This document shows positions 4,453-61,773 of a stretch of DNA of 64,000 bases, in pieces. Origin of the DNA: Candidatus Gottesmanbacteria bacterium (GTDB lineage Bacteria > Patescibacteriota > Microgenomatia > 2-02-FULL-39-11); assembly GCA_016186795.1 (NCBI GenBank), contig JACPKY010000002.1, positions 989,892 through 1,053,891 on the forward strand. The letters are read 5' to 3'. Made by a program: the position numbers and the translations under genes. The notes beneath the pieces are model-generated. The model saw only the letters and a list, made by a program, of their open reading frames with translations. It was not told the origin of the DNA and did not search any database. The stretch's first letter is position 1, and each line of letters begins with the position of its first letter.

Positions 4453-4481
4453 TTGAGAAAAAAATTCAATTTCGCTATAAT
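4453..4481 (+). promoter_or_regulatory. Sigma-70-type promoter: TTGAGA, 17-bp spacer, TATAAT
   Basis: Perfect -35/-10 consensus spacing read directly from the sequence, upstream of the orphan transcript. Confidence 0.5.
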
Positions 4482-4487
4482 GTGGGT

Positions 4488-4777
4488 CTTAATACCGCGG
4501 GGTAGTGTACAGTTGCACAGGAGGCTCAAAAATGGGCACGTCGAAGAGTAATTTTCGATGATTTCTTGGCTATATCGGTAGAATCCTTAATAACATATGG
4601 ACAATACCGAGGAAACTTTTCTTAAGCGTGAAGCATTGAAGAGGATCCGTAGAGACTACACGCCAAGCTCCCGATTAAAACGGGGTGAAGATATAGTCCG
4701 AACCTTCGAGTAATCGAAGTAACATAAGCATAATCTCCTAGGCCGGGTGCGACTCCCGGCTCCGCAACATAAGTAAA
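4488..4777 (+). ncRNA. Candidate ~300-nt structured RNA of unknown identity; only a 9-codon SD-led ORF inside; 3' end has a tRNA T-arm/acceptor-like hairpin
   Basis: Bounded by a consensus promoter and a strong intrinsic terminator. No long ORF on either strand. AGGAGG-N7-ATG followed by 9 codons at 4519-4561. CCGGG-TGCGACT-CCCGG-CTCCGCA-A at 4743-4767 resembles a tRNA/tmRNA 3' domain. Confidence 0.35.
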
Positions 4778-4805
4778 ATAGCGCCTCACAAGGCGCTATT
4801 TTTTA
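4778..4805 (+). terminator. Rho-independent terminator
   Basis: ATAGCGCCT-caca-AGGCGCTAT stem followed by TTTTTT. Confidence 0.6.
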
Positions 4806-6645: not shown

Positions 6646-7077
6646 ATGTTTCTTGTTCCGATAAATTACGTAGCTATACTTCTCTGCGGTGTTGCCGCAA
6701 TGGTAGTTGGCTTTGTCTGGTACGGGCCGCTTTTTGGCAAAGAGTGGATGGGACTTGTTGGTATGACGAAGGAGAAGATGGAGAAAGCCAAGGCAGATAT
6801 GACCAAGACGTACGGGTTAAGCTTTCTCTCATCTCTTATTATGGCCTATGCACTTGCTCATTTCGTCTGGTTTACCGCTCCCGGATCAGTTGATCTAACA
6901 GTAGGAGTAAAAACAGCTCTCTGGGCGTGGGTTGGGTTTGTGGCAACAACCGCTGTTTCGGGCTATCTCTATTCTCCTGAGAAAAAACCCATGAAGTTGT
7001 TTGTCATAGATACAGGATATTACCTGGCAACGCTTCTTGTTATGGGAGTTATTCTTGCTCTGATGCCATGGGGTTAA
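6646..7077 (+). CDS. DUF1761-like small membrane protein
   Basis: 143 aa with 4 predicted TM segments. Family assignment from memory only. Confidence 0.3.
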   Translation: MFLVPINYVAILLCGVAAMVVGFVWYGPLFGKEWMGLVGMTKEKMEKAKADMTKTYGLSFLSSLIMAYALAHFVWFTAPGSVDLTVGVKTALWAWVGFVATTAVSGYLYSPEKKPMKLFVIDTGYYLATLLVMGVILALMPWG

Positions 7078-7123
7078 AAGTCAAGAAGTAAGCCATAGAA
7101 TGATGGTATAATAGAAAATCTAG

Positions 7124-8107
7124 ATGGAGTTGTTACCGCTTCTTTTCCTCGGAGTAAGTATACTTGCTATTGGTAAAGGTTCTGATTGGTTGACGGATTC
7201 CCTTATTCCCATTGCTCATAAACTTGGTGTTTCTGGTTCCTCAGTTGGTCTTATCCTTGTCTCTATTGCTGTGAGTCTTCCCGAGATTCTTGTTGCGGTA
7301 TATGCCACAGTGCAAGGGTATCCTACGATAAGTCTTGGTGTTATATTGGGGTCAATCATTTGCAATATTGGCCTTATGACGGGTCTTTCTGCATTAGTGA
7401 GACCACTTCGGGTAAGTCGAACAATTATTCTTCGAGACGGTGTTTTTTCCATCGTTGTTCCTATTCTTGTCTTTGCAGTTAGTACTGGAGGTCAGATAAC
7501 ACGGATTGATGGAATTGCTCTTTTTCTTTTATTTATCCCCTACGTCATCAACGTATTCCTTCAGGAGAAAAGGATATCGTCTGAAGAGAAGGAAGCCCGT
7601 ATGAAAGAGGTAGAAATTGAACTTGAGCTCATCGGATTCGAGTTTGGAACATTGAAGTCGGGTTGGGCATCATTTGTGTTGGGTTTACTTCTCCTTCTTG
7701 GAGGGGCACAGCTTTTTGCAAATCAGCTGATTAGTATTGCTGCGCAGTTTGGTGTGAGTGAACTTCTTATTGGCCTTACAATTGGAGCTCTTGGTCCGTC
7801 TATTCCTAATATTATTGCAGCATATACCGCAACAAAAAAAGGCATGGGAGAGATTGCTGTGTCAGAAACATTGGGTTCGAATATCTTTACGCTTCTGGTG
7901 ACCTTGGGAATATCTGCAATGCTTTCTCCTATTGAGATTTCTTCTCAATGGTTAACATTTGATATTCCTGCGCTTATTGTGATGAGTTTCCTTCTCTTTG
8001 TATTCATTCTGACCAAAAAAACAATCTCAAAACATGAAGGGATTATCCTCCTTGGAGGGTATATCAGTATCCTCCTAATTCAAATTTTTATGAGTATTCA
8101 CCCATGA
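7124..8107 (+). CDS. Ca2+/Na+ antiporter (CaCA family, YrbG-like)
   Basis: Two alpha-repeat regions (GSSVGLILVSIAVSLPEI and GSNIFTLLVTLGISAM) separated by an acidic loop. Confidence 0.7.
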   Translation: MELLPLLFLGVSILAIGKGSDWLTDSLIPIAHKLGVSGSSVGLILVSIAVSLPEILVAVYATVQGYPTISLGVILGSIICNIGLMTGLSALVRPLRVSRTIILRDGVFSIVVPILVFAVSTGGQITRIDGIALFLLFIPYVINVFLQEKRISSEEKEARMKEVEIELELIGFEFGTLKSGWASFVLGLLLLLGGAQLFANQLISIAAQFGVSELLIGLTIGALGPSIPNIIAAYTATKKGMGEIAVSETLGSNIFTLLVTLGISAMLSPIEISSQWLTFDIPALIVMSFLLFVFILTKKTISKHEGIILLGGYISILLIQIFMSIHP

Positions 8108-11509: not shown

Positions 11510-11639
11510 AGTGTAAATGTATTGTATCTTTGTTTTTAGAGAAAAGCACGAATTGTGGAGTTGATCAGCGTCATTTGACATATGTGGTATGATAGAAAAA
11601 ATTAAATAAAAGCGTTGATCCGGCAGGTTGGAGCCGGGT

Positions 11640-11861
11640 CGTCCCGATAAAATCGGGACACGCTGCACAAAAGTATGTGACGGAGGCGAAACCGTTAAAG
11701 AAAGCAACGAGTGTCGTAAACAAAACGGAGCTCGTCTGAAATAAGGTTTCCTTATAAGACGTCCCGATTGTATCGGGATTTTTTATAGGCGATAAAACAA
11801 GGTGGCACCACGGTATTAACCGTCCTTGATCCCGATTCAATCGGGAGAGAGGACTTTTTTT
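11640..11861 (+). promoter_or_regulatory. trp operon leader: T-box-like antitermination element with terminator hairpin
   Basis: AAGGTGGCACCACGG at 11799-11813 resembles the T-box consensus AGGGUGGUACCGCGG. It is followed by an ACGGT/ACCGT helix and a terminator GTCCT..TCCCGATtcaATCGGGA..AGGAC plus T7 ending 8 bp before the trpE start. The same TCCCGAT/ATCGGGA stem occurs three times (11641-11659, 11761-11779 plus T6, 11830-11846). Confidence 0.4.
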
Positions 11862-13223
11862 ATGGATATTTTTCAAAAAATACATCTTGGCAAGTATCGA
11901 GAGGAAGAAATAGATATTCCACTTTCGGCTTTTGAAGCCTTTAAAAGGCTTTATGGAAATTTTCGCACGATGTTTCTTCTTGAATCTCTCGGTGAAGAGG
12001 GAAAATACAATCGGTACTCCTATGTGGGATTTGATCCAACTTTTCTAATTCATGCCCGAGGGAAAAATCTCACGATCAACGGAAAATCATACGAAGTGAC
12101 AAATCCTTATCGACAACTAAGCACTTTCACAAGATTAAACGATAATGCGCATGATTTCTCCGGAGGATTGGTAGGATATATTTCCTATGAAGGTACTCAA
12201 TATTTTGAAAAAGCATTTACTCCAAAATCAAATAGAGAATTTTCAGATTTCGCATTCGGATTCTATCCCGATGGATTGAAGTTTGATAAGAAAACGAGAC
12301 GGTGCATCTATTTTCATCATGGGCAATCGAGGCGTCGAATGGTTCTTGGTGTTCTCCATGGGTCCGGAGACCTGCAATCATTTTCATTCAAAACATTAGC
12401 ATCTCAATCGAGCCAAAAGCACCATTCTGCCATTGTTGCAAAGGCCAAACAAGAAATAAAAAAAGGGAATATCTTTCAAGTGGTTCTTTCAGTTCGGACG
12501 AATTATCACCTCTTTGGGGATACAAGAAGACTGTATGCAGCGATTAGATCGATTAATCCTTCTCCATACATGTCCTATCTCAAATTTGGTGAGCAAGAAA
12601 TTTTGTCGGCAAGTCCTGAGCTTCTTATACGAGTAAAAGGAAGATATATTGAACATTTTGGGACACTGGCAGGAACAATATCTCGGGGCGAGAGTGAAAA
12701 AGAAGATGAAAAACTAGCAGTACAGCTAAAAGCAGATGAAAAAGAGATGGCAGAGCACATGATGCTTGTCGATTTGGCGCGAAATGATGTAGGGAAAATC
12801 TGCAAATTTGGCAGTATTTCGATAGATAAATTAGCGTCTGTGAAGCCGTATAGTCATGTTCAACATTTGTATTCAGAAATTCGAGGAAGGCTTAGAGAGA
12901 ACGAAACTGTCTTTTCGGCATTAGCTGCATGCTTTCCAGCAGGGACTCTCACCGGTGCCCCAAAAATCGAAGCGATGAAAATTATCAATTCGTTAGAAAG
13001 TGAACCCCGCGGTCCCTATGGTGGAGTTATTGGGTATGCGTCATTAAACGGTGAAGCCATGTTCTCCATAGCCATACGGTCAATTTTTGCCCATGGTCAA
13101 TACGCATATACCCAGACAGGAAGCGGCATAGTTTTGGATTCGAAAGTAACACATGAGTATCAAGAAATAATAAATAAACAAAAAGCAATGGAGGAAGCCC
13201 TGAGACTCGCTCAAGGTGAGTAG
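11862..13223 (+). CDS. trpE: Anthranilate synthase component I
   Basis: Chorismate-binding enzyme motifs (LESLGEEG...; GxxGYxxYE; C-terminal PKIEAMKII...GPYGG). First gene of the trp cluster. The start was moved to the Met after the leader terminator. Confidence 0.85.
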   Translation: MDIFQKIHLGKYREEEIDIPLSAFEAFKRLYGNFRTMFLLESLGEEGKYNRYSYVGFDPTFLIHARGKNLTINGKSYEVTNPYRQLSTFTRLNDNAHDFSGGLVGYISYEGTQYFEKAFTPKSNREFSDFAFGFYPDGLKFDKKTRRCIYFHHGQSRRRMVLGVLHGSGDLQSFSFKTLASQSSQKHHSAIVAKAKQEIKKGNIFQVVLSVRTNYHLFGDTRRLYAAIRSINPSPYMSYLKFGEQEILSASPELLIRVKGRYIEHFGTLAGTISRGESEKEDEKLAVQLKADEKEMAEHMMLVDLARNDVGKICKFGSISIDKLASVKPYSHVQHLYSEIRGRLRENETVFSALAACFPAGTLTGAPKIEAMKIINSLESEPRGPYGGVIGYASLNGEAMFSIAIRSIFAHGQYAYTQTGSGIVLDSKVTHEYQEIINKQKAMEEALRLAQGE

Positions 13224-23726: not shown

Positions 23727-24674
23727 ATGCAGAGACTTCTTCTCATTGACGGCCATGCCATTTTGCACCGTGCGTTTCATGCGTTACCACCCCTTACCAC
23801 CTCAAAAGGGCAGCAGGTGAACGCGGTCTACGGGTTTATAACGATGCTTTTGAGGGTTTTAGAAGAGTATAAACCTACTCATGTTGCGGTTGCCTTTGAC
23901 CGTCCGAAACCAACATTCCGAAAGAAGCTTTTCGATGGATATCAGGCGAAAAGACCTAAGATGGATAAGGAACTGATTCCTCAAATTGCGGTAGTCCATA
24001 CGGTTTTGGAGACGATGAAGATCCCTGTATTTGAACTCGACGGGTATGAGGCAGATGATGTTTTGGGAACACTTGCCATGCAGGCAAAAAGGAAAAAGAT
24101 GGAAGCAATTATTGTGACGGGAGATAGGGATTTACTGCAACTTGTGAACAGTCACGTGAAAGTCGCGTTGCCGGTAAAAGGCATTTCCGAATCGAAACTC
24201 TATGATGAAGAGGAGGTCGTAAAAAAGTGGGAAATCCACCCTTTCCAGGTAGCAGATTTTAAAGCATTGACAGGGGATCAATCAGACAATTACCCAGGTG
24301 TTGCCGGTATTGGTCCGAAGACCGCTTCATCCCTTTTGACACAATTTAAAACTCTTGAGGGAATGTACAAACATCTTGAGAAGATAGGGAATGCTTCGCT
24401 TCGGGAAAAATTGGAGACACACAAAGAGTCTGCGGAACTTTCAAAAAAGCTCGCAACTATTGTCACCGATGTGCCAGTTCATTTCAACACTTCAGAGAGT
24501 AAGCTACATAATCTCAATACACTTGATACGCAACTCCTTCTCGACCACTTAGAGTTTCGAAGTTTAATACCGAGATTGTCATTGAAAAAGGAACCAGTAA
24601 ACAGTAAACAGAAAACAGTGAACAGCGAAAAGATAAAATCGGAAATAAAAGATCAACAGATAAAATTATTTTAA
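23727..24674 (+). CDS. 5'-3' exonuclease (Pol I N-terminal/FEN-like domain protein)
   Basis: LLIDGHAILHRAFHALP start and H3TH region. C-terminus carries a K/N/Q/S-rich tail encoded by NAAACAG repeats. Confidence 0.8.
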   Translation: MQRLLLIDGHAILHRAFHALPPLTTSKGQQVNAVYGFITMLLRVLEEYKPTHVAVAFDRPKPTFRKKLFDGYQAKRPKMDKELIPQIAVVHTVLETMKIPVFELDGYEADDVLGTLAMQAKRKKMEAIIVTGDRDLLQLVNSHVKVALPVKGISESKLYDEEEVVKKWEIHPFQVADFKALTGDQSDNYPGVAGIGPKTASSLLTQFKTLEGMYKHLEKIGNASLREKLETHKESAELSKKLATIVTDVPVHFNTSESKLHNLNTLDTQLLLDHLEFRSLIPRLSLKKEPVNSKQKTVNSEKIKSEIKDQQIKLF

Positions 24675-24677
24675 TTT

Positions 24678-25826
24678 ATGCGTGTAGCACTCGTTCACGA
24701 CTATATAAAAGAATACGGAGGAGCCGAAAGAGTATTGGAATCCCTCCATGAGATTTGGCCAGAAGCTCCGATCTATACAACTGTCTATTTACCAGAATTT
24801 TTAGGTCCACATAGGAAACGGTTTGTACGTTGGAAGATAATTCCCTCTCGTCTGAACGGAGTACCTTTTGCTGAAAAACTTATAAGTCCCATTCGAATTC
24901 TTACTCCGTGGATTTTTGAGAATTGGGATTTTACTTCCTATGATGTTGTTATCGTTTCTGCAACTGGTGCCTATTTTCCCAATCTGATTGTACGAAAACC
25001 CCACACACTTCACATCTGTTACTGCCATACACCTCCTCGGTACCTCTATGGATATCCAACCGCGAGAAACTGGCAAAAGAGCGTTTTTGGGAAAATTGTT
25101 GGTTCGATTATCAATCATTCTCTTCGACAGATTGATTTTCTAGCATCACAGCGGCCTGATTTTTTTATTGCCAATTCCAATGAAGTGAGAAAAAGAATTG
25201 AGAAGTTCTATAGAAGAGAAGCGGAAGTGATATACCCGCCAGTTGAAATATCAAAAATCAAATATCAAAAATCAATCCGCCAGCTGGCGGACAAAAATAA
25301 AAAAGAAGATTATTATTTAACTGGAGGAAGGTTAGCCAGGGCAAAACGGATTGAGCTTGCTATCGAAGCATGCAATAGACTGAAATTACCCCTTAAAGTC
25401 GTTGGGAAGTCATTTGCGGATTATGGGGAAGAGTTGAGAAAGATTGCAGGACCAACTGTTGAGTTTTTAGGAGAAGTTCCAGACAGTGAATTAGGAGAAC
25501 TTTTTAGTCAGTGTCAGGCATTTATTTATCCAGCAGAACTAGAAGATTTTGGGATTATGCCGGTTGAGGCAATGTCGTATGGAGCACCAGTTATTGCATC
25601 AAGGGATGGGGGAGTGGCAGAAAGTGTCGTTGACGGCAAAACAGGAATACTTTTTGATGAGTATTCTATAGAAGATCTTATTGCTGCAATAAAAAAAATA
25701 CAAAAGCTCAATATTAAACAAGAAGATTGCATAAAGCAAGCAAAGAAATTTAGTAAAGCAAGATTTAAGAAGGAAATACGGAATTTCGTTGAGACGAAAT
25801 TCAAGAAGCATGCCAGAACTTCCTGA
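24678..25826 (+). CDS. Glycosyltransferase family 4 (GT-B); carries an in-frame palindromic-repeat insertion
   Basis: EDFGIMPVEAMSYGAPVIASRDGG motif. The insert ISKIKYQKSIRQLADKNKK interrupts the conserved VIYPPVE...YYLTGGRL region. Confidence 0.7.
   Translation: MRVALVHDYIKEYGGAERVLESLHEIWPEAPIYTTVYLPEFLGPHRKRFVRWKIIPSRLNGVPFAEKLISPIRILTPWIFENWDFTSYDVVIVSATGAYFPNLIVRKPHTLHICYCHTPPRYLYGYPTARNWQKSVFGKIVGSIINHSLRQIDFLASQRPDFFIANSNEVRKRIEKFYRREAEVIYPPVEISKIKYQKSIRQLADKNKKEDYYLTGGRLARAKRIELAIEACNRLKLPLKVVGKSFADYGEELRKIAGPTVEFLGEVPDSELGELFSQCQAFIYPAELEDFGIMPVEAMSYGAPVIASRDGGVAESVVDGKTGILFDEYSIEDLIAAIKKIQKLNIKQEDCIKQAKKFSKARFKKEIRNFVETKFKKHARTS
25248..25297. repeat. Palindrome-centred repeat element, copy 1, in-frame inside the GT4 gene
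   Basis: Tandem ATATCAAAAATCAA x2, then the perfect 16-bp palindrome TCCGCCAGCTGGCGGA (25276-25291), then CAAAAA. The 34-mer at 25264-25297 is identical to copies at 29751-29784 and 44367-44400. Confidence 0.75.
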
Positions 25827-26661
25827 GGTAGAAACAATAAGACTCCAGTTACAAAAGGTATTGGTTGGAGAAAAGATCGCCGCGACTTATATTCTTTCCG
25901 ATAGGTCCTTTCAAGGGGATGCAAAGCATTTAGAGGGTACCACAATTAAGGGTGTCAGACGCTTTGGGAAAATGATAGCTATAGATTTTGAGAATGGGTA
26001 TGCTTTGGTGGTTCACTTAAAAATGACTGGGCAGCTACTATTTCAGATAACAGATAATAGTAAACAGAAAACAGATTTACCAAATAAACATACAAGAGTG
26101 ATTATTCAATTTCATTCTGGTGGTAAGTTATTTTTCAATGACCAGAGGAAATTTGGGTGGATGAGGATAGTATCAATAAACAAGGAACAAGGAACAAAAA
26201 ACGGATTAAATACGCTAGACAATCTGTTAGAAAATCTAGGGCCAGATCCGTTGCATGAGTTAAACGCTGAAAAGTTATATAAGATCCTTCAGACATCAAA
26301 AAGGCCGGTCAAATTAGTCCTTATGGATCAACGGAAGATTTCCGGAGTGGGAAATATTTATGCAAATGATGCTCTATACCTTTCCGGAATTCATCCGCGG
26401 ACTTTCGGTAACCAACTATCTCATAAACAAGGGAAAAACTTATACCGTAATTTAGTGAAAGTACTCAAAAGTGGCATCAAATGGAAAGGGGCATCAAGGC
26501 AGCATTTTCGCGACATTTATGGACAGAAAGGTCAAGTACAGGATCATTTTCTTGTTTACGAAAGAACTGGTCAGGTATGTCCTCAAGGCCACAAACATAT
26601 TCAAAAATTCCAACTCGGGGGTCGGGGTACGTATTTTTGTCCTCAATGTCAAATTCGATAG
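25810..26661 (+). CDS. mutM: Formamidopyrimidine-DNA glycosylase
   Basis: N-terminal MPELPEVE (catalytic Pro2 and Glu3). C-terminal C4 zinc finger CPQGHKH...CPQC. Confidence 0.85.
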   Translation: MPELPEVETIRLQLQKVLVGEKIAATYILSDRSFQGDAKHLEGTTIKGVRRFGKMIAIDFENGYALVVHLKMTGQLLFQITDNSKQKTDLPNKHTRVIIQFHSGGKLFFNDQRKFGWMRIVSINKEQGTKNGLNTLDNLLENLGPDPLHELNAEKLYKILQTSKRPVKLVLMDQRKISGVGNIYANDALYLSGIHPRTFGNQLSHKQGKNLYRNLVKVLKSGIKWKGASRQHFRDIYGQKGQVQDHFLVYERTGQVCPQGHKHIQKFQLGGRGTYFCPQCQIR

Positions 26662-29442: not shown

Positions 29443-30387
29443 ATGGAAAATTCTCTCTCAATCTATCTAAAAAGTATCAAAATTCCAGAGAAGTCTTCCC
29501 ATAAAGGTCAAAATGGGAGACTTCTCCTTGTTGGAGGATCTCATCTTTTTCATGCAGCGTCTCTTTGGTCTCTCACGACCGCTTCTCGTATTGTTGATCT
29601 TGTACATTATGCTTCGATAGAGGAGAATAATAAAATTGTTCAGAACCGAAAGGAAGAGTTCCGAAACGGGATTATCATACCTCGTTCGGAGATTGAAAGT
29701 TATATTGATGAAGATGATTGCATTTTAATCGGGCCGGGAATGGTACGTGAAGATCAAAAATCAATCCGCCAGCTGGCGGACAAAAAGCAAAAATACATAT
29801 CAAAAATTAAAAATTTAAAGGAAGTTAATCAGATTCAAGATGAAGGAGTACTAACTTATTACTTGACGAAATATTTGCTTGAGAAATATCCTCATAAAAA
29901 ATGGGTGATCGATGCCGGATCATTGCAGATGATGGAGCTTTCTTGGATTCCCAAAAACGCAATTTTGACCCCACACCGTAAAGAATTCGAGATGCTCAAG
30001 TTCAAAGTTCAAAGTGAAAAGTTAAAAGTCTTCCTTAAAACGAAAAAATTAGATGAGCAGTTAAAATTATTTGCAAAGGAATATAACTGCATTATTTTAT
30101 TGAAAGGCGAAGTTGATTACATAGCTTCACCGACACAATTTGAGAAAATAGAAGGTGGTAATGCCGGAATGACCAAAGGAGGGACAGGGGATGTTTTGGC
30201 TGGGCTTGTGGCAGCATTGTATTGTAAAAACGATGCATTTTCCTCCGCAGTGGTTGCTTCCTACATAAACAAAAAAGCCGGGGATGATCTATTCAAAACT
30301 CATGGGTATTGGTTTAATGCTTCGGACCTTTCAAATCAAATACCCAAAACAATGAAAGAGGTTTTTGAGAGGACGTCTCCTAAATAA
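29443..30387 (+). CDS. NAD(P)H-hydrate dehydratase (YjeF C-terminal/carbohydrate-kinase-like); carries an in-frame palindromic-repeat insertion
   Basis: GPG...DAGSL...GGTGDVLAG motifs. The insert QKSIRQLADKKQKYISKIKNLKE lies between conserved blocks. Confidence 0.6.
   Translation: MENSLSIYLKSIKIPEKSSHKGQNGRLLLVGGSHLFHAASLWSLTTASRIVDLVHYASIEENNKIVQNRKEEFRNGIIIPRSEIESYIDEDDCILIGPGMVREDQKSIRQLADKKQKYISKIKNLKEVNQIQDEGVLTYYLTKYLLEKYPHKKWVIDAGSLQMMELSWIPKNAILTPHRKEFEMLKFKVQSEKLKVFLKTKKLDEQLKLFAKEYNCIILLKGEVDYIASPTQFEKIEGGNAGMTKGGTGDVLAGLVAALYCKNDAFSSAVVASYINKKAGDDLFKTHGYWFNASDLSNQIPKTMKEVFERTSPK
29751..29784. repeat. Palindrome-centred repeat element, copy 2 (34-mer identical to copy 1; same reading frame as copy 1)
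   Basis: ATCAAAAATCAATCCGCCAGCTGGCGGACAAAAA, palindrome at 29763-29778. Confidence 0.75.
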
Positions 30388-31816
30388 CAATTTTTACCAT
30401 TCCTTTGGTTGCATCAACTTCAACCATTTGCCCGTTGTTAAGTACTTTTGTTGCATTACCTGTACCAACGATGCACGGAATCCCAAATTCTCGAGAAACA
30501 ATGGCAGCGTGACTGGTAATTCCTCCTTCATCGGTCACAATTGCCGCAGCTTTTCTCATAGCAGAAACGTAGTCGGGGTGAGTGGAGGGCGCAACGAGAA
30601 TATTTCCAGTTTTTACTTTCTTTATATCTTTTACCCCTTTCACAATTCGTACTACTCCCCGGGCAATACCGCTTGAAGCAACTTGCCCTTTTATTTCTTC
30701 CGTTTGGTCTGAATTATCGGTCAAGTGGAACATACTAAGAGCTATTTTTACGTCTTTGCCGGCAAGACAAACAAGATTTTTGTGCACATCGAGGTAAGAA
30801 ACGAACCCCTTCTTTCTATTTCGAACAAGTTTTTGTGATATTGTCCGGTGACCATCAAGAAATGTGCTGATATCTGAAATTTGGAGAAAGCTACTATCTT
30901 TTGGGTGTATTTTCATCCTCCGTGCTATTTCTCCGAAAAAGGAAAGAGCGTAGAAGACTCCTTGACGTCTGAAGTCGTCTCGGACATCTTTTATGTAGAC
31001 GAACCGTTTTGCGGCAAAAAGATAGGAGAGATCATTCTTTTTAATATGGAGTTTCTTGGCATAAAAAGAGAAAAGTTTAATTTTCTTTTTATTTATAGGC
31101 GGAAGTTGCACGATATATCTTTGAAATTCTGATCTCGTCCAAGGACTATTGTGAAGATCCAAACATGAGAGCCATTTATATTTCTCATAAAGAGTCGTAA
31201 ATACATTACTTTTGAAATTTCCCTGTAGTTTGTTTCCCGCATATTGAAGTCTGAGTGCAGTTGAGGGAAAGTCAGGTGTAAAAAGTGAATCGAGAATATC
31301 CTGACGGCTGTTTTGATTATTCTGTTTTTGATACCTATCGAGAATAGATGTAGCTTCCTCTGAGATGAAATTATTGATGATAAAAGATGTCCACGCATAG
31401 ACGGAATACTCAAAAAGCTTTGTTTGGTATTGTTGGTAAAGCCTTTTAAGCTGTTTATCTGTTTTAGATTTTAGATTGAGATTTGCTAGAGTTTTACAGA
31501 ATCGGACATATTCTTTTCCCAAGCGGATTAACTCTCTCTCATAACGAATAAGTTTTTTCAGATTTTTGGTGTATTTTGCATTTAAAGACTCAACGACATC
31601 ACGCCAGGCAGTTTCATCGATATAGAATGCAGTATTTGGTCCTTCTGGGATGACAACCTGGTCAATTGAAGGTTTTGGGATATGGGTTTTGATAAGGTTT
31701 GAAAGACAAAGAATTGCACCTTCCGAGTACTGCACGCCATAGTCTCTGACATATATTTTTTTCCAAGAGATTGAGGGAAGCTTCTTTTGGAAAATAGGTG
31801 TAGGAATATTTTTCAT
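30380..31816 (-). CDS. PEP-utilizing enzyme mobile (phosphohistidine swivel) domain protein with an unknown ~370-aa N-terminal region
   Basis: C-terminal VTDEGGITSHAAIVSREFGIPCIVGTG is the PEP-utilizers His-domain signature. No ATP-grasp domain was seen. Confidence 0.5.
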   Translation of the reverse strand: MKNIPTPIFQKKLPSISWKKIYVRDYGVQYSEGAILCLSNLIKTHIPKPSIDQVVIPEGPNTAFYIDETAWRDVVESLNAKYTKNLKKLIRYERELIRLGKEYVRFCKTLANLNLKSKTDKQLKRLYQQYQTKLFEYSVYAWTSFIINNFISEEATSILDRYQKQNNQNSRQDILDSLFTPDFPSTALRLQYAGNKLQGNFKSNVFTTLYEKYKWLSCLDLHNSPWTRSEFQRYIVQLPPINKKKIKLFSFYAKKLHIKKNDLSYLFAAKRFVYIKDVRDDFRRQGVFYALSFFGEIARRMKIHPKDSSFLQISDISTFLDGHRTISQKLVRNRKKGFVSYLDVHKNLVCLAGKDVKIALSMFHLTDNSDQTEEIKGQVASSGIARGVVRIVKGVKDIKKVKTGNILVAPSTHPDYVSAMRKAAAIVTDEGGITSHAAIVSREFGIPCIVGTGNATKVLNNGQMVEVDATKGMVKIVI

Positions 31817-41022: not shown

Positions 41023-41889
41023 ATGCCGGAATATTTTTTTTCTGTCATCATACCGATTCTAAACGAGGAAAAGTTTCTTCCCTTTTTACTCACCGACCTT
41101 TCTAGGCAAGTATTTCACCAATTTGAAGTCATTATTATCGATGCCTATTCCGATGATGATTCAACTGTTCTGGCAGAGAAGTTTCGAAAGAAATTACCCC
41201 ATTTAACTATTGTACAAAGCAAAAAAAGAAATTCACGGTATCAGAGGAATAAAGGTGTCCGTTTTGCGAAAGGGAACTATCTTGTTCTATTTGAGGCAGA
41301 CGTTCGAGTTTCTCCGACGTTTCTGAAAGAGGTCTATGCTGCGATACAAGAAAAACCTGCAGATTGTTATGCTACGTTTCTTGAAATTAGAAGTGATTCG
41401 CCCATTGAGCAATTATTGATTTGTCTCTCAAATATGGCGCTGGTAGGCCTTCAATATATCAGAAAACCATTTGGAGGAGGATTTAATACGATTGTATTGA
41501 AAGATGCATATCGTAAATTAAAAGGGTATCGTGAAGATGCTTGCATTTCAGACGATCATGATTTTGTAACACGACTTTATCAGGCAGGCTATCAGTATCG
41601 AGTATTAACAAGGCCAAAGGTAATCTACTCCTTACGCCGTTTTTATAAACAAGGGACAATACCTGTCATGTGGCTCTATATTAGTGCGGCAATCTATTTT
41701 ATTCTAAAGGGAGAACCGCAGAAAGCGGAAAATTTCTCGTATCCTATGGGAGGTCATCTCTATGACAAGCCTTCTCGGTATAGGTATAGTTTCCTCATCA
41801 ATCAGGTAAATTATTATTCTGATAGGATTTACCGCCACGCTCAGAATGTAAACATGAAGATTAATTCATGGTATCGGAGATATTTTTAA
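41023..41889 (+). CDS. Glycosyltransferase family 2 (start moved to MPEYFFSVIIP)
   Basis: SVIIPILNEEKFL and IIIDAYSDD. Confidence 0.65.
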   Translation: MPEYFFSVIIPILNEEKFLPFLLTDLSRQVFHQFEVIIIDAYSDDDSTVLAEKFRKKLPHLTIVQSKKRNSRYQRNKGVRFAKGNYLVLFEADVRVSPTFLKEVYAAIQEKPADCYATFLEIRSDSPIEQLLICLSNMALVGLQYIRKPFGGGFNTIVLKDAYRKLKGYREDACISDDHDFVTRLYQAGYQYRVLTRPKVIYSLRRFYKQGTIPVMWLYISAAIYFILKGEPQKAENFSYPMGGHLYDKPSRYRYSFLINQVNYYSDRIYRHAQNVNMKINSWYRRYF

Positions 41890-41897
41890 AAAAAATC

Positions 41898-43259
41898 ATG
41901 AATATCATTGCCGATCTTCAACTCCATTCCAAATACGCAAGAGCAGTTTCTCAAGAGATGGTCATTCCCAAAATGTGGGAGTGGGGGAAGCGAAAAGGAA
42001 TTGGCATCTTAGCAACTGGCGATTGGACACATCCACTTTGGATGAGAGAGATAAAAACGTACTGCGAAGAGATGGGGAATGGACTACTGAAGCTCAAAAA
42101 TCATCCGCCAGTTGGCGGATCAAATATCAAAAATGAAGAGGATGGGCCGTATTTTTTATTAGAATCAGAAGTCTCGTGCATATACTCTCAAGGAGGAAAA
42201 GCAAGACGGATTCATACGCTCATTTGGGCTCCAACAGTTGAGAGCGCGGAAAAAATAAATAAAGAATTGACAAGACAGGGAGCAAACCTCATGTCAGATG
42301 GTAGACCTATCATCGGCCTTACCAGTATTGAGGTTTGTGATATCGTTTTTTCTATTGACCCGAAGTGTTTGATCATACCCGCTCATATTTGGACACCGTG
42401 GTTTTCCCTTTACGGATCGGAATCTGGTTTCGATTCAATATCTGAGGCATATGGGCGGTTTGCGAAAGATATTTATGCTGTGGAGACGGGCCTTTCAAGT
42501 GATCCAGCGATGAACTGGCGAATCAAGGAGCTGGATACACGCGCTATCGTCTCTTTTTCTGATGCTCATTCAGGACCAAAGTTGGGGAGAGAAGCGACAG
42601 TATTTGATTTACACACACTTAGTTTCGACTCAATACGAGAAGCGTTAAAGCAAAACAGTGAGGCCGAAAATCGAATAGCGTATACTATCGAGTTTTATCC
42701 CGAGGAGGGAAAATACCACTATACAGGTCATAGAAACTGTGATGTGAAGCAGACGCCTTCTCAAACACGGGAGAAAGGAACACTTTGCCCTGTCTGTGGA
42801 CGCAAACTTACTGTTGGAGTTATGCATAGAGTAGAAGAATTGGCAGGAAGAACCGAAGAAGAGTTGAAAATCATAAAAAGAGAATTAGGTGGTACGAAGA
42901 TGGAAGGGATATATTCAGAAACCTTTCCCAACAGGCCTTCGTATGTGATGATGGTTCCACTTCAGGAGATTTTATCCGAAGCAATTGGTACCGTCCCAAC
43001 AAGTGTCACTACTCAAAATGAATACAAAAAATTGACTGATCATTTAGGGGGAGAGTTTCACATTCTTTTACAAAAAGATCTTGCGGATATTGCCAAAGTT
43101 TCTGGGGAGCGCGTTGCCCAGTCAATTGAAAAGGTACGGAAGGGTAATATTGTTGTTGATCCGGGGTATGATGGAGTATTTGGTATTGTGAAAATTTGGG
43201 GAAATGAAAAGGAAAAAGAAGAGAAAGATGAGAAAGAGCAGTTGAGTTTGTTTGGATAA
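41898..43259 (+). CDS. PHP-domain protein, endonuclease Q-like (TIGR00375-type); carries an in-frame palindromic-repeat insertion
   Basis: N-terminal ADLQLHSKYA PHP start. Later His/Asp ligands. C-terminal Cys cluster C..CPVCGRKLTVGVMHRV. The insert KNHPPVGGSNIKNEEDG is present. Confidence 0.45.
   Translation: MNIIADLQLHSKYARAVSQEMVIPKMWEWGKRKGIGILATGDWTHPLWMREIKTYCEEMGNGLLKLKNHPPVGGSNIKNEEDGPYFLLESEVSCIYSQGGKARRIHTLIWAPTVESAEKINKELTRQGANLMSDGRPIIGLTSIEVCDIVFSIDPKCLIIPAHIWTPWFSLYGSESGFDSISEAYGRFAKDIYAVETGLSSDPAMNWRIKELDTRAIVSFSDAHSGPKLGREATVFDLHTLSFDSIREALKQNSEAENRIAYTIEFYPEEGKYHYTGHRNCDVKQTPSQTREKGTLCPVCGRKLTVGVMHRVEELAGRTEEELKIIKRELGGTKMEGIYSETFPNRPSYVMMVPLQEILSEAIGTVPTSVTTQNEYKKLTDHLGGEFHILLQKDLADIAKVSGERVAQSIEKVRKGNIVVDPGYDGVFGIVKIWGNEKEKEEKDEKEQLSLFG
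42094..42134. repeat. Palindrome-centred repeat element, copy 3 (one substitution in the core: TCCGCCAGTTGGCGGA; third reading frame)
   Basis: TCAAAAATCA-TCCGCCAGTTGGCGGA-TCAAATATCAAAAAT, core at 42104-42119. Confidence 0.65.
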
Positions 43260-44217
43260 GATGCTTACTTGCCGCCAAATTGGTCTTGATGATCGTCATT
43301 ACTGGGATGATCTAATAAGTAAGAGTTCTACCGCATCCTTTTTCCAAACCCGCGAGTGGATTTCTCTTTGGATGAAACATTTTAAAGGAAATCCATATAT
43401 CGTAGGAGTTTTTGAAGAGGAAGATTGTATCGGAATTGGTCCATTTGAAAAAAAGGGTACTACATTTGAATTATTGGGAAGTTCTGAAGTGTTAGGGAAG
43501 GAACTTATTAGTGATTACGGCGATATTATTGCACAATCTGGGAGAGAAGAAGAAGTTTGGAAGTCTCTTTTGGCATATAGAGAAAAAGAATATCAAGGAT
43601 TGGTTCTTCGATTTCGATTCATTCAAGCTGATTCCCCAAGCTCTTCGATTCTTGCGAGCCTTGGCTTTGTGAAGGAAAAAAAAGATATTTCTCCGCAACT
43701 TTCCCTTCCAGGTTCATGGGATGAGTATCTTTTATTGCTTGATCGGCATAACCGTCATGAGCTTCGGAGAAAAATGAAACGGCTGGGAGTCTCTTTGAGA
43801 AATCTTGTGGTATCAGAGTGTACAAGTTCCGATATTGATATTTTCTTCCATCTTATGGGGGAAAGTTCACCTCAGAAAGCGGCCTTTTTAACTCCTCTCA
43901 TGAAAGCATTTTTCCAAGATATGATCAAGTTCTACTACGAGCAAAGTCTGCTTGAGCTAATTTTTCTTAACTTCGAGGGCAAATCTGTTGCAGGAGCACT
44001 CGTGTTTTTGTATAAGAATGATGTGCTATTATATAACTCCGGATTTGATAGGACGGTCTATAATCTATCGCCGGGATTTATCTTGTCTGCTCTTCTTATT
44101 CAAAAAGCAATCGAAGAGAAACGACGTCGATTTGATTTCCTCCGGGGAGAGGAGCGGTATAAATTCGATCTTGGTGCACAAGCTCGAGACGTTTATACAT
44201 TTTCAAAGAAACTATGA
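43252..44217 (+). CDS. GNAT-fold acyltransferase (FemAB/CelD/BioF2-like)
   Basis: About 320 aa with a duplicated acyl-CoA N-acyltransferase-like pattern. Position in a glycan cluster. Weak. Confidence 0.35.
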   Translation: MDKMLTCRQIGLDDRHYWDDLISKSSTASFFQTREWISLWMKHFKGNPYIVGVFEEEDCIGIGPFEKKGTTFELLGSSEVLGKELISDYGDIIAQSGREEEVWKSLLAYREKEYQGLVLRFRFIQADSPSSSILASLGFVKEKKDISPQLSLPGSWDEYLLLLDRHNRHELRRKMKRLGVSLRNLVVSECTSSDIDIFFHLMGESSPQKAAFLTPLMKAFFQDMIKFYYEQSLLELIFLNFEGKSVAGALVFLYKNDVLLYNSGFDRTVYNLSPGFILSALLIQKAIEEKRRRFDFLRGEERYKFDLGAQARDVYTFSKKL

Positions 44218-45005
44218 GAGAGAGACGCTTACTTGCGGTTTTTGCTCATCCTGACGACGAAGCATTTGGTCCGGCTGGGGCAATTGCAAAATATGCACAT
44301 GAAGGAGTCGAGGTACATGTGTTGACAGCAACAAAAGGTGAAAAAGGCGAGTGGCAACAAGAGAAAATCAAAAATCAATCCGCCAGCTGGCGGACAAAAA
44401 TCAAAAGTGAGGAAGTAATTAAAATTACAGAAAAAGTGAAGATTGAACATGTAAGAGAAAAAGAATTATTGGCATCTGCAAAGATATTGGAGGTTGCGAA
44501 AGTAGAGTTCTTAGATTTTATAGACGGGACACTCTGTAATGCGGTATATCATAAGCTCGCTAATAAAGTTATTCAAAAGATCAATGCTTTTCAACCTCAT
44601 GTTGTTATAACATTGGATCGGCTAGGTGTTTCTGGGCATCTTGACCATATTGCGGTGTCTCTCACGACTACGTATGCATTTCAAAAAACAACATTTCCAA
44701 AGAAGTTGTACTATGAGTGTCTCCCTCAAAAAATCAGGAAAAACGATCCGGTGATGGATACCTATTTTATCTATTTTCCCGAAGGATTTCGTGATGAAGA
44801 AATAACCACCCGTATTGATTATTCTGCATATTGGGACAAAAAAGTTGCAGCGATGAGGGCACATAAAAGTCAGAGTAAAGACGTCGGCAATATCCTAACG
44901 AGACTTTCCAAATGGCCGAAGGTAGACTATTTCATACTCCAGATGCATCGGGGTGTTCCTGTAAAGTTACCGGAAACAGATTTGTTTGCAGGAGTAAAGA
45001 TTTAA
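44214..45005 (+). CDS. PIG-L/LmbE family deacetylase; carries an in-frame palindromic-repeat insertion
   Basis: AVFAHPDDEAFG zinc-binding motif. The insert EKIKNQSASWRTKIKSEEVIK is present. Confidence 0.8.
   Translation: MRERRLLAVFAHPDDEAFGPAGAIAKYAHEGVEVHVLTATKGEKGEWQQEKIKNQSASWRTKIKSEEVIKITEKVKIEHVREKELLASAKILEVAKVEFLDFIDGTLCNAVYHKLANKVIQKINAFQPHVVITLDRLGVSGHLDHIAVSLTTTYAFQKTTFPKKLYYECLPQKIRKNDPVMDTYFIYFPEGFRDEEITTRIDYSAYWDKKVAAMRAHKSQSKDVGNILTRLSKWPKVDYFILQMHRGVPVKLPETDLFAGVKI
44364..44400. repeat. Palindrome-centred repeat element, copy 4 (34-mer identical to copies 1 and 2; second reading frame)
   Basis: AAAATCAAAAATCAA-TCCGCCAGCTGGCGGA-CAAAAA, core at 44379-44394. Confidence 0.75.
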
Positions 45006-48253: not shown

Positions 48254-49609
48254 ATAGATTCATTTCCTGCCGCAGTCAAGTTTCTAGAAAATTATATTCC
48301 AGATCCAACAAAAAAATTCCCGGGAGAGCTGGGGTTACTCCGGATGAGGACACTGATGGAATTTTTAGGAAACCCCCAAGATTCGTACCCCACCATTCAT
48401 GTCGGAGGAACATCAGGAAAGGGCTCTGCAGCAACTCTTATTGCCTCAATACTCTCACAGAAGTATATCGTGGGACTTCATACCTCGCCGCATTTGGTGA
48501 GTATTAGAGAGAGGATCAAAATCTTTTCAAAAAATAAACAACAGGTAACAGATAACAATAAAAATAATATATCTGAGGAAAAGTTTGTTCATATCTTACA
48601 GGAAGTTATTTCTGCAATACAGAAGTTGGAGAAGAGTGAATTGGGAAAACCTAGTTACTTTGAGGTTGTGACTGCGATGGCATTTTTGGCCTTTCAAAGA
48701 GAAGAGATGGATATGGCAGTTATCGAGGTGGGAATGGGAGGCAAATTCGATGCGACTAATGTAGTAAAAAAACCTCTCGTTGCCGTTTTAACAAACATAG
48801 GACTTGACCATACTGAAGTTTTAGGAGATACGGTGGAAAAGATTGCGGTCGATAAGTCTGGAATCATCAAATCCGCAGTTGAAGTAGTGTCAGGAGTGAC
48901 TCAGCCATCAGTTATTAAGATTATTGAAACGTCCTGCAGAGAAAAAGGGGCACATTTATCACTTTTGGGAAGAGATTTTTCGTACTCTTTGCAATCTATC
49001 AGTGAGGGGGGGAGTGTATTTGATTATCAAGGGAAACATTCATATGCGAATTTGAATCTTACTTTACAAGGAAGTTATCAAATTGAAAATGCAGCAATTG
49101 GCATCAGATGTATTGAAGTCCTTCCTGAAAAATTCTCACTTTCTGAATCACAGATAAGAAATGGATTAAAAAACGCAACAATTGCAGGTAGATTTGAGAT
49201 TCTTTCTAAAAAACCTCTTATTATTCTTGATGGGGCACATAATGAAGATAAAATAAGAGCATTGATGTCTTCTCTTCGAACTATGTATCCGAAAAAAACT
49301 ATTACAACTCTTCTTGCAATTAAAAATGATAAAAGACAAGAAGCAATGTTACGAGTACTTCTTTTGTATTGTAAAAAAATTATTCTCACAAAATTTTCTC
49401 TTACAACAGATATGGGGGAAACTCTTTCATTCCCCCCTGAAGAGTTGAAAAAAACAATTCTTACTATCGATCCAACTGCAGAAGTTCAAGTCCTTCCCGA
49501 TGTCTCTATTGCCTTGCAACAGGCTAAGCGAGAAATAAAAAGAGATTTGCTTCTTATTACCGGTTCGTTATACTTGGTGGGAGAAGTGAAGAAAGTATTA
49601 AGTATCTAG
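48254..49609 (+). CDS. folC: Folylpolyglutamate synthase / dihydrofolate synthase (Mur ligase family)
   Basis: P-loop HVGGTSGKGS. Mur ligase middle and C-terminal domains. An in-frame low-complexity tract KNKQQVTDNNKNN. Confidence 0.7.
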   Translation: MDSFPAAVKFLENYIPDPTKKFPGELGLLRMRTLMEFLGNPQDSYPTIHVGGTSGKGSAATLIASILSQKYIVGLHTSPHLVSIRERIKIFSKNKQQVTDNNKNNISEEKFVHILQEVISAIQKLEKSELGKPSYFEVVTAMAFLAFQREEMDMAVIEVGMGGKFDATNVVKKPLVAVLTNIGLDHTEVLGDTVEKIAVDKSGIIKSAVEVVSGVTQPSVIKIIETSCREKGAHLSLLGRDFSYSLQSISEGGSVFDYQGKHSYANLNLTLQGSYQIENAAIGIRCIEVLPEKFSLSESQIRNGLKNATIAGRFEILSKKPLIILDGAHNEDKIRALMSSLRTMYPKKTITTLLAIKNDKRQEAMLRVLLLYCKKIILTKFSLTTDMGETLSFPPEELKKTILTIDPTAEVQVLPDVSIALQQAKREIKRDLLLITGSLYLVGEVKKVLSI

Positions 49610-61256: not shown

Positions 61257-61308
61257 GGGATACTATACTATATCAAAAATAAAAAATCAAATATCAAAAA
61301 AAGATGGG

Positions 61309-61773
61309 GTGTTCTATACTAGAAATATGCTCTATACTCCTCATTTTTTAACCGGAGCTGCAATTTTAAAAATAGTACCTGATCCGCTTCTAGGGTTACT
61401 CCTAAGTTTTCTTTCACATTTTATTCTTGATTTAACGCCGCATAATGATTTTGATCTCCGACCAGGAATAACCTTGAGAGAATTTTTTCGGATGGAGAAG
61501 AGACGTCGAAATATAATTTTGCTTGTTATGGGAATTGACTATTTCTTTATGGTGGTTAGTTTCTTGTGGATATTGGTTACAAAGAGCAATTATTGGCTCC
61601 TTGTTGGAGGAGGAGTAGGGATACTTCCTGATGCATTTGAACAATTCATCATGCTTTTTGGCAAAAAGCTTCCCGGTTGGCAGGATAGACTACAGTGGAG
61701 AGTATCTGCAAAATACGGGTTTATTTCCTATCCGATTGTAAGTTTAATCGCATTATATATTCTTTTTAATTAG
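61309..61773 (+). CDS. Hypothetical membrane protein
   Basis: 154 aa with 4 TM segments. Confidence 0.3.
   Translation: MFYTRNMLYTPHFLTGAAILKIVPDPLLGLLLSFLSHFILDLTPHNDFDLRPGITLREFFRMEKRRRNIILLVMGIDYFFMVVSFLWILVTKSNYWLLVGGGVGILPDAFEQFIMLFGKKLPGWQDRLQWRVSAKYGFISYPIVSLIALYILFN

Follow-up and report, generated by a model that had tools for sequence, protein, structure and literature searches.

Repeat-bearing genes in the window

A 64,000-nucleotide stretch of Candidatus Gottesmanbacteria DNA (contig JACPKY010000002.1, positions 989,892 to 1,053,891; hereafter the window) contains four unrelated protein-coding genes which carry, in frame, copies of one short palindromic repeat. The first open reading frame (ORF; 24678-25826, + strand) encodes a GT4 glycosyltransferase (Glycos_transf_1 / Glyco_transf_4); the repeat lies in its inter-domain linker, between VIYPPVE and YYLTGGRL. 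The second (29443-30387, + strand) encodes the NAD(P)HX dehydratase NnrD (Carb_kinase, TIGR00196), with the repeat after the conserved GPGMVR motif. The third (41868-43259, + strand) encodes a homologue of endonuclease Q (EndoQ; E = 3e-45 to PfuEndoQ, 5zb8), and the fourth (44214-45005, + strand) a PIG-L/LmbE-type deacetylase in which the repeat occupies a hypervariable loop between GEKG and REKELL. These four identities, proposed in a preliminary description made from the sequence alone, are confirmed by domain matches and by the similarity to 5zb8.

The repeat is found in variable, loop-like segments of its hosts, as had also been suggested. The GT4 linker, delimited by VIYPPV(D/E) and YYL(T/A)GGRL, ranges from 13 to 46 residues among 120 orthologues. 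The AlphaFold model of the PIG-L protein has a mean predicted local distance difference test score (pLDDT) of 87; residues 50-70 score ~50 and form a protruding loop. At the position of the repeat, the EndoQ host has ~15 residues more than PfuEndoQ, and the NnrD host has ~31 residues more than structure 3bgk.

The exact 34-mer ATCAAAAATCAATCCGCCAGCTGGCGGACAAAAA occurs three times (25264-25297, 29753-29786 and 44367-44400) and has no match in 100 shuffles. Its 16-nt palindromic core TCCGCCAGCTGGCGGA occurs four times; shuffles average 0.1. All four copies are on the + strand, each within a long ORF. The earlier claim that the 34-mer is identical in three genes holds, with the second site moved by 2 nt from the position first given (29751-29784). 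The fourth copy had been described as a one-substitution variant of the 34-mer. This is true of the 16-nt core at 42104-42119, which has a single loop substitution (CAGTTG); it is not true of the 34-mer, since an alignment places an extra indel on either side of the core, and the copy is absent from a 34-mer search even with 3 mismatches.

Copy 1 (25246-25310, + strand) consists of four left heptamers (ATATCAA AAATCAA ATATCAA AAATCAA, 25246-25275), the core at 25276-25291 and an A-rich right flank; it is read ISKIKYQKS-IRQLAD-KNKK. Copy 2 (29751-29826, + strand) has its core at 29765-29780 and A-rich repeats which continue to ~29826; it is read EDQKS-IRQLAD-KKQKYISKIKNLK. Copy 3 (42094-42137, + strand) belongs to a different flank subfamily, with an 18-nt palindrome ATCCGCCAGTTGGCGGAT at 42103-42120 and the right flank CAAATATCAAAAATGAAGAG; it is read LKN-HPPVGG-SNIKNEE. 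Copy 4 (44358-44406, + strand) begins AAAATCA AAAATCA A, followed by the core at 44379-44394 and CAAAAATCAAAAGT; it is read KIKNQ-SASWR-TKIKS.

The core is thus translated as QKSIRQLADK in copies 1 and 2, NHPPVGGSN in copy 3 and NQSASWRTK in copy 4, which uses all three reading frames. Identical DNA, three frames and unrelated hosts confirm that this is a nucleotide-level repeat rather than a shared protein domain. No further hairpins are present in the 8.7 kb past the right end of the window, which were read from a 100% identical contig. The density is therefore 4 copies per ~73 kb, or ~1 per 16-18 kb.

Structure of the repeat unit

The unit, ~35-55 nt long as a whole, is a tandem array of heptanucleotides rich in A (NTCAAAR), interrupted by a GC-rich hairpin core. 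The core has a stem of 6-7 bp, TCCGCC/GGCGGA, and a short loop. In 142 copies from many genomes, A runs recur in the flanks with a 7-nt period, and the left and right flanks match best at 26 or 33 nt. The period between left and right flanks is 26 nt in 19 of the 21 clean copies; this means that a regular array of 7-nt repeats is broken by 19 nt, made up of the 16-nt core and 3 nt more. At the PIG-L site, one relative has a second hairpin species (17 nt + 2) which likewise breaks the array for 19 nt. The flank consensus is ..TCAA before the core and CAAA.. after it, and carries neither a GTAG nor a CGTC tag. A 10-bp target-site duplication around a 16-bp insert was considered and rejected; the period of 26 is better explained by 19 nt which break up a 7-nt array, and arrays also occur without a core.

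The A-rich strand is free of stop codons in all three frames, so the DNA can be translated in whichever frame it has landed. The T-rich strand contains stops in two frames and would encode F/L/I-rich peptides.

The structure of the unit also bears on the main rival explanation, in which the hairpin is a functional cis-element under selection, either an antisense terminator or an mRNA hairpin for protein binding, decay or processing, and the peptides are a tolerated by-product. On the antisense strand, a T run follows the GC hairpin of each copy, and the four copies are the top four terminator-like sites of a 20-kb region, all on the minus strand. In the sense RNA, the hairpin folds with -10.8 to -11.9 kcal/mol and reaches z-scores as low as -4. 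Mismatches among copies cluster in the loop and not in the stem; the stem is constrained, the loop is free and a few changes are compensatory. All of this suits a functional hairpin. However, a terminator or RNA hairpin requires structure, not one exact stem across phyla, and the orientation of the copies is wrong for terminating sense transcripts. A sense-strand intrinsic terminator was considered separately and rejected; the hairpin and T run occur only on the antisense strand of host genes, and intergenic copies mostly have the A-rich strand co-directional with neighbouring genes.

The same sites in orthologous genes

The presence of the core varies between relatives. Among 26 PIG-L orthologues, the segment from GEAG to REKELL ranges from nothing to more than 40 residues, and SASWR is found only in the window protein. 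At the DNA level, one relative (L120, 72% identical) has no hairpin and is 36 nt shorter at this site. In another (L119, 80% identical) this site, of equal length, contains the other hairpin TCCCGAT-TTG-ATCGGGA (TCCCGATTTGATCGGGA) within GAAATTT heptamers.

In GT4, the core is found in 5 of the 120 orthologues; three read it as PPAGG or PPVGG, one as IRQLAD and one as SASWR. The linkers of most other orthologues are K/N/Q/S/I-rich, as the heptamer repeats encode; the shortest linkers have no such stretch. In the closest relative (L121, 75% identical), eight heptamers are present without a core. A more distant one (L124, 64% identical) shares both the ATATCAA flank and the core with the window and reads the core in the SASWR frame, while L066 and L016 have the core with other flanks and in other frames. 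At the NnrD site, the array TCAAATG TCAAAGC is common to L010 and L123 and the core is present in L010 only; L124 has another array.

Two GT4 orthologues contain a different insertion. In L125 (10550-10690, orthologue P0162), and also in P0184, a ~40-nt element with another hairpin lies inside the conserved YPPV motif. In L125 the host CCGCC is duplicated on both sides, giving the reading YPPA-SAMLKALRAG-PPVD; this is a cleaner target duplication than is seen at the window copies.

The core comes and goes within arrays that are inherited at these linkers, and the frame differs at one site. The sites are either old or recurrently re-used. Recent spread, which had been proposed from the identity of the copies, is supported only in part. 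Flank identity within this genome is the sole argument for recent copying; against it, the same sites hold the core, in other frames, at 64-69% host-protein identity.

These comparisons cut both ways for a functional hairpin. The core is kept at orthologous sites whatever the frame, as such a hairpin should be. However, close relatives lack the core at the same sites, and a different hairpin can take the same site, as in the PIG-L gene of L119.

Distribution across genomes

Species-representative genomes (596 Gb) were scanned with the pattern ATCCGCCAGYTGGCGGA(N)CAAA. At least 118 loci match the core and flank pattern; by our own estimate, ~1 is expected by chance. Among the loci listed, record titles are mostly those of Patescibacteria from many classes (Gottesman-, Davies-, Shapiro-, Roizman-, Moran-, Kuenen-, Terry- and Wildermuthbacteria, Saccharibacteria and Parcubacteria); Bacteroidales, other Bacteroidota, Cloacimonadota and Elusimicrobia are also represented. 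Third-party annotation (TPA) records labelled 'uncultured Gammaproteobacteria/Pseudomonadales' (L015, L016, L049, L101, L110, L118 and others) have labels that look unreliable; they are low-GC contigs which have orthologues, gene order and even insertion sites in common with Microgenomates records.

Two Bacteroidota hosts are confirmed. In L005, a 647-kb contig, the element lies within a Por_Secre_tail domain of the type IX secretion system (T9SS); in L080 it lies in cysteinyl-tRNA synthetase (CysRS). The L080 gene, from Bacteroidales, contains further short tandem repeats encoding NLEPGTWNLEPGTWNPEPGT right after the element (~300-420). Other hosts include valyl-tRNA synthetase (ValRS), TsaD, RseP, a MiaB-like enzyme, Memo-AMMECR1 and a GNAT. 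The RseP-like protease gene of L015 (2579) carries a second, altered copy TCCGCCAGCCGGCGGA (read QSASRRTK) ~250 nt upstream of the intact one, so one gene can carry two.

Approximately half of the copies lie within long open frames. Polar copies in ORFs have the A-rich strand as the coding strand in 39 cases, versus 8 in antisense. Outside the window, the frames used are PPAGG (26), SASWR (9) and IRQLAD (10). Intergenic copies also have the A-rich strand co-directional with both neighbouring genes more often than not (15 versus 6); orientation that follows transcription in non-coding DNA is a further point in favour of a functional hairpin. The low density in the window region is a point against it.

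Flanks are shared as well as cores. The window flanks ATCAAAAATCAA/core/CAAAAATCAAAA recur in L004, L013 and L030. The combination TTCAAAGTTCA/core/TCAAAGTTCAAA is found in two Bacteroidales metagenome-assembled genomes (MAGs) and in records of the candidate phyla radiation (CPR), and the right flank of copy 3 is also present in L015 and L101. Since flank subfamilies are common to unrelated genes and genomes, the flanks are part of what is copied.

The pattern had no match among 2.9 million viral contigs; the element is therefore not obviously phage-borne.

Association with GIY-YIG nuclease genes and tRNA copies

In three loci from different phyla, the core is located at the breakpoint of a partial tRNA copy beside a small ORF. 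These are L020 (Cyclobacteriaceae, tRNA-Met), L097 (Cloacimonadota) and L017 (tRNA-Asn, in the D-loop). The small ORF encodes ~85 residues and consists of the GIY-YIG catalytic domain alone (PF01541 only). A set of 80 metagenomic loci was then collected solely by similarity to the GIY-YIG protein, using a two-sequence alignment as query; 78 were usable. Of the 80 loci, 15 contain the core (up to 2 mismatches), with 23 occurrences in total, compared with 0.07 expected by our own calculation. The stem TCCGCC/GGCGGA, with a loop of 2-8 nt, is present 10-40 nt past the GIY-YIG gene in at least 43 of the 78 loci.

The arrangement of these cassettes is regular. Upstream of the GIY-YIG gene there is an intact tRNA-Met or tRNA-Asn. 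Downstream, the first six bases of a tRNA anticodon loop (YTCATA or CTGTTA) come before the stem, and the variable region, T arm and acceptor end of that tRNA come after it. Alignment of intact and disrupted tRNA copies places the hairpin where positions 38-48 would be. The possibility that the core is a tRNA variable arm was rejected; ARAGORN and the alignment put it at positions 38-48 of duplicated tRNA copies. The related loci thus have the layout of a putative homing cassette, with an intact tRNA, a GIY-YIG gene and a disrupted tRNA copy. The four window copies are solo hairpins with no adjoining tRNA fragment and are not part of such a cassette. Rfam contains no family for the hairpin or the cassettes and recognises the tRNAs only.

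Some tRNA remnants contain further hairpins in the T loop, TCCCGAT-N-ATCGGGA and CCTGCCTGCCGGCAGGCAGG, which are also species found inside CPR genes. GIY-YIG-only genes are common in Patescibacteria. One CPR MAG, JBDRCJ01, contains both contexts: tRNA-Asp fragments with the core of the window, and heptamer-flanked copies.

Two groups of cassettes have additional features. In L020 (Cyclobacteriaceae JAYVBH01, 6720-7640), three tandem ~115-nt units lie past the tRNA-Met, followed by the GIY-YIG gene and a fourth unit. Each unit comprises a terminator-like hairpin, the core and the 3' part of tRNA-Met, which looks like repeated events at one tRNA gene. In the CPR cassettes L206, L209, L210 and L030, the duplicated tRNA (Gln, Tyr or Ser) has two adjacent hairpins (CCnnGTCATYCGACnnGG and CGCCAnnTnGRATnAnnTGGCG) inserted in its T loop, and base changes in them between loci are compensatory.

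The wide distribution and the cassettes bear on another explanation, in which the core serves as a signal for DNA uptake or protein binding and has built up by molecular drive, through biased uptake and recombination, in naturally competent CPR bacteria, like the uptake signal sequences (USS) and DNA uptake sequences (DUS) of Pasteurellaceae and Neisseria. Three points are what an uptake signal would lead one to expect: competence machinery is present in CPR bacteria; the core, within AT-rich flanks, is conserved whatever the lineage or frame; and it is placed preferentially in variable protein segments. Its density, however, is ~1 per 16-18 kb as opposed to ~1 per kb for USS/DUS. Its variable loop length implies recognition of a hairpin and not of a duplex, it is tightly linked to GIY-YIG/tRNA cassettes, and it is found in unrelated phyla including Bacteroidota. 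We consider an uptake signal very improbable.

Heptamer arrays and other hairpins in the window

Several heptamer arrays in the window lack a core. CAGTAAA is repeated 4.4 times at 24595-24625 (+ strand) within the ORF of a 5'-3' exonuclease (23727-24674), and CAGATAA 4.7 times at 26044-26076 (+ strand) within the Fpg ORF (25789-26661). An array of the AAGTTCA type lies within NnrD itself (29998-30029, + strand) and is read KFKVQSEKLKV; the AAGTTCA unit flanks the core in other genomes. An array of ATCAAAA, the unit of copies 1, 2 and 4, is found at 61272-61304 (+ strand), at the start or just upstream of the ORF at 61309-61773. Period-7 tandem repeats are over-represented in general, with 11 of 29 Tandem Repeats Finder (TRF) rows; even though a period of 7 is not divisible by three, most of them are within ORFs, among others those of the 5'-3' exonuclease, Fpg and NnrD. 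Further examples are at 31462-31477, 48540-48561 and 2961-2994.

The frequency of core-less arrays in the genes of this genome and at orthologous linkers is what would be expected if the repeats were ordinary low-complexity linker expansions produced by replication slippage, with a palindrome that is due to chance, convergence or a shared protein motif. Slippage cannot repeatedly make the same GC-rich palindrome. The 16-mer occurs four times in the window, a result never obtained in shuffles, and at least 118 loci elsewhere match where ~1 is expected. The core is also read in three frames and is present in non-coding DNA and tRNA remnants. As an account of the whole repeat, this explanation has almost no probability. 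It is refuted for the core; for the arrays alone, slippage is a possible origin.

The second hairpin species, TCCCGAT/ATCGGGA, occurs three times in a T-box leader (11606-11861; RF00230 match, E = 2e-8, 43 bits, below the gathering score) upstream of trpE (11863-13223), in each case on the + strand. TCCCGAT-AAA-ATCGGGA (11642-11658) lies in the stem I region, TCCCGAT-TGT-ATCGGGA (11762-11778) is followed by a T run, and TCCCGAT-TCA-ATCGGGA (11830-11846) forms the apex of the T-box terminator. These hairpins cap T-box stems and the terminator; fixed-stem hairpins therefore occupy loops of structured RNA as well as protein linkers. Their position in a regulatory RNA is also consistent with a functional hairpin.

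A group I intron (RF00028, 72.6 bits, 4517-4720) seems to split a tRNA-(f)Met-like gene at 4470-4780 in the anticodon loop, after CTCA. This gene is not called by ARAGORN. The split point is the loop position that the hairpin occupies in the tRNA-Met remnants of L020.

Proposed origin and spread of the element

On balance, the copies are likely to be a family of very small, non-autonomous hairpin elements which act at the DNA level, resemble repetitive extragenic palindromic (REP) sequences and Rickettsia palindromic elements (RPEs), and are selfish or neutral. The hairpin unit would spread by copy-and-paste from site to site and from genome to genome, with another copy serving as the template for gene conversion or break repair. 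Copies would survive only where they are harmless, in intergenic DNA, flexible linkers and protein surface loops. Within genes, survival would favour the A-rich strand as the coding strand; this strand is stop-free and encodes hydrophilic K/N/Q/S/I residues plus PPAGG, SASWR or IRQLAD. Selection would purge all but in-frame, hydrophilic, loop-located copies, and indels in the flanking arrays could later shift the core into another frame. The stem sequence is conserved across phyla and the loop is free to vary, which points to a trans-acting factor that would recognise the core as a folded hairpin rather than as duplex DNA.

The GIY-YIG nucleases are a tentative candidate for the engine of the element, supplying breaks or recognition; we regard this as a possibility to be held with some doubt. 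As a working model, the nucleases would cut, and repair or gene conversion from another copy would write the hairpin unit into sites that resemble tRNA loop sequences. The heptamers NTCAAAR resemble the anticodon loop YTCATAA ahead of the cassette hairpin, and this similarity, which is one of resemblance only, may explain the choice of target. A broader and equally doubtful proposal is that the fixed-stem hairpins (TCCGCC/GGCGGA, TCCCGAT/ATCGGGA, CCTGCC/GGCAGG and others) may be the cognate DNA or RNA substrates of the widespread 85-residue GIY-YIG-only nucleases. Together they could form an undescribed mobile system which homes into tRNA genes and leaves a hairpin-disrupted tRNA copy. A side activity would write 16-19-nt hairpins into tRNA-loop-like sequences, that is, A-rich 7-nt arrays in essential genes, riboswitch stems and intergenic DNA, across Patescibacteria and Bacteroidota.

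A number of observations weigh against these proposals. The core is perfectly conserved at sites common to genomes with 64% protein identity, which could mean function and not selfish copying. No insertion event was caught between near-identical strains, and insertion, deletion and gene conversion are indistinguishable in the available comparisons. The 7-nt arrays occur without cores, and no known transposition chemistry accounts for them. The readable CPR GIY-YIG cassettes hold other hairpins (CCnnGTCATYCGACnnGG and others) and not the core of the window, and the window and the next 8.7 kb contain no GIY-YIG gene, transposase or core-bearing tRNA remnant. When ORFs of at least 120 aa were clustered over the 118 loci, no gene family was enriched beside dispersed copies. 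Finally, many MAG taxon labels are unverified, and several 'Gammaproteobacteria' records match Microgenomates in orthologues and gene order.

Of the rivals, a hairpin maintained for its function is the strongest; given the evidence on its two sides set out above, we consider it unlikely as the explanation of the family. It is not exclusive of the element-like interpretation, and both can hold.

If copies of a mobile or neutral element are indeed involved, housekeeping proteins of CPR bacteria (aminoacyl-tRNA synthetases, TsaD and DNA repair enzymes) would be peppered with insertions translated in any frame; this would have a bearing on annotation, alignment-based phylogeny and structure prediction in these lineages. 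A 16-nt stem conserved from Patescibacteria to Bacteroidota would imply a specific, uncharacterised factor that recognises hairpins. The 7-nt repeat arrays inside ORFs are unexpected for coding DNA and need explaining. If the hairpins are GIY-YIG substrates, protein linkers in the smallest bacterial genomes would be under continuous remodelling by a nuclease-driven process.

Comparison with known systems

In the literature, no description was found of the core, of heptamer arrays in ORFs or of the GIY-YIG/tRNA cassettes (subscription journals lay outside the search). The preliminary description, which had called the repeat RPE-like, was right in kind, in that this is a copied DNA-level element with RPE-like behaviour; it was incomplete as to what the unit is, how old the sites are and how widely the element is distributed.

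RPEs are ~100-150 bp long and form ten families in Rickettsia, each encoding a conserved peptide, inserted in frame where the protein fold permits (PMC10969869). The element described here resembles them as a palindromic repeat of a reduced genome that is placed in frame, at permissive sites, in unrelated housekeeping genes. In contrast, it has a core of 16-18 nt and a unit of ~35-55 nt, is associated with 7-nt arrays and is found in Patescibacteria and Bacteroidota. Each RPE family uses one frame, whereas the core is read in three frames in the window and in three elsewhere (26, 9 and 10 copies). No sequence relationship to RPEs is expected. The likeness to RPEs is thus one of behaviour and not of membership; a core of 16 nt encodes no conserved element-specific peptide.

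REPs are GC-rich hairpins of 20-40 nt which occur in many copies and are likely to be recognised in folded, single-stranded form. The present palindrome is slightly shorter and shares these features. The gene for the presumed REP enzyme has REPs next to it, much as GIY-YIG genes here have the hairpin. Unlike REPs, it has no GTAG or CGTC tag, occurs as singletons and not as inverted dimers, is intragenic in approximately half of its copies and has a stem common across phyla. The associated gene encodes a GIY-YIG nuclease and not a Y1/HUH transposase (REP-associated tyrosine transposase, RAYT), and the heptamer arrays have no parallel. To our knowledge, what enzyme disperses REPs has been an unsettled question ever since their first description, RAYTs accounting for the GTAG class only. 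The GIY-YIG/tRNA cassettes, if the association is causal, offer a concrete candidate enzyme for a REP-like element. Some REPs are themselves intragenic, and many of these are reported to lie in replication and repair genes (PMC3733652).

[quoted passage not shown] The present element shares the first three properties. It is far shorter, however, and a 16-nt palindrome has no room for terminal inverted repeats and an internal segment. No related autonomous insertion sequence was found, and the flanking direct repeats belong to the 7-nt array and are not a clean target-site duplication.

For the cassettes, the closest parallel is SegB of phage T4, a free-standing GIY-YIG endonuclease encoded in a tRNA gene cluster which is reported to promote inheritance of its own region (PMC2330249). 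In the cassettes, the nuclease gene lies between an intact tRNA and a disrupted duplicate, as homing into a tRNA gene would leave. They differ in that the nuclease is a catalytic domain alone (~85 residues), is chromosomal and found in several phyla, and is accompanied by a conserved hairpin which replaces tRNA positions 38-48. We know of no link between Seg-type genes and dispersed in-gene hairpins.

Organelles provide a further comparison. Yeast mitochondria contain short GC-rich hairpins in the form of GC clusters, which are mostly intergenic, and byps, which are skipped by the ribosome. Palindromes are reported from coding regions of Nematomorpha mitochondria (PMC6649704). These systems and the element described here have in common short GC-rich hairpins spread in AT-rich, reduced genomes and inside protein genes. 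The present element differs in being bacterial, in frame, stop-free and presumably translated.

Finally, USS/DUS and the cyanobacterial HIP1 are short motifs which are conserved in every frame and enriched in tolerant parts of proteins. The element described here differs from both in its much lower density, its hairpin with a variable loop and its association with nuclease/tRNA cassettes.

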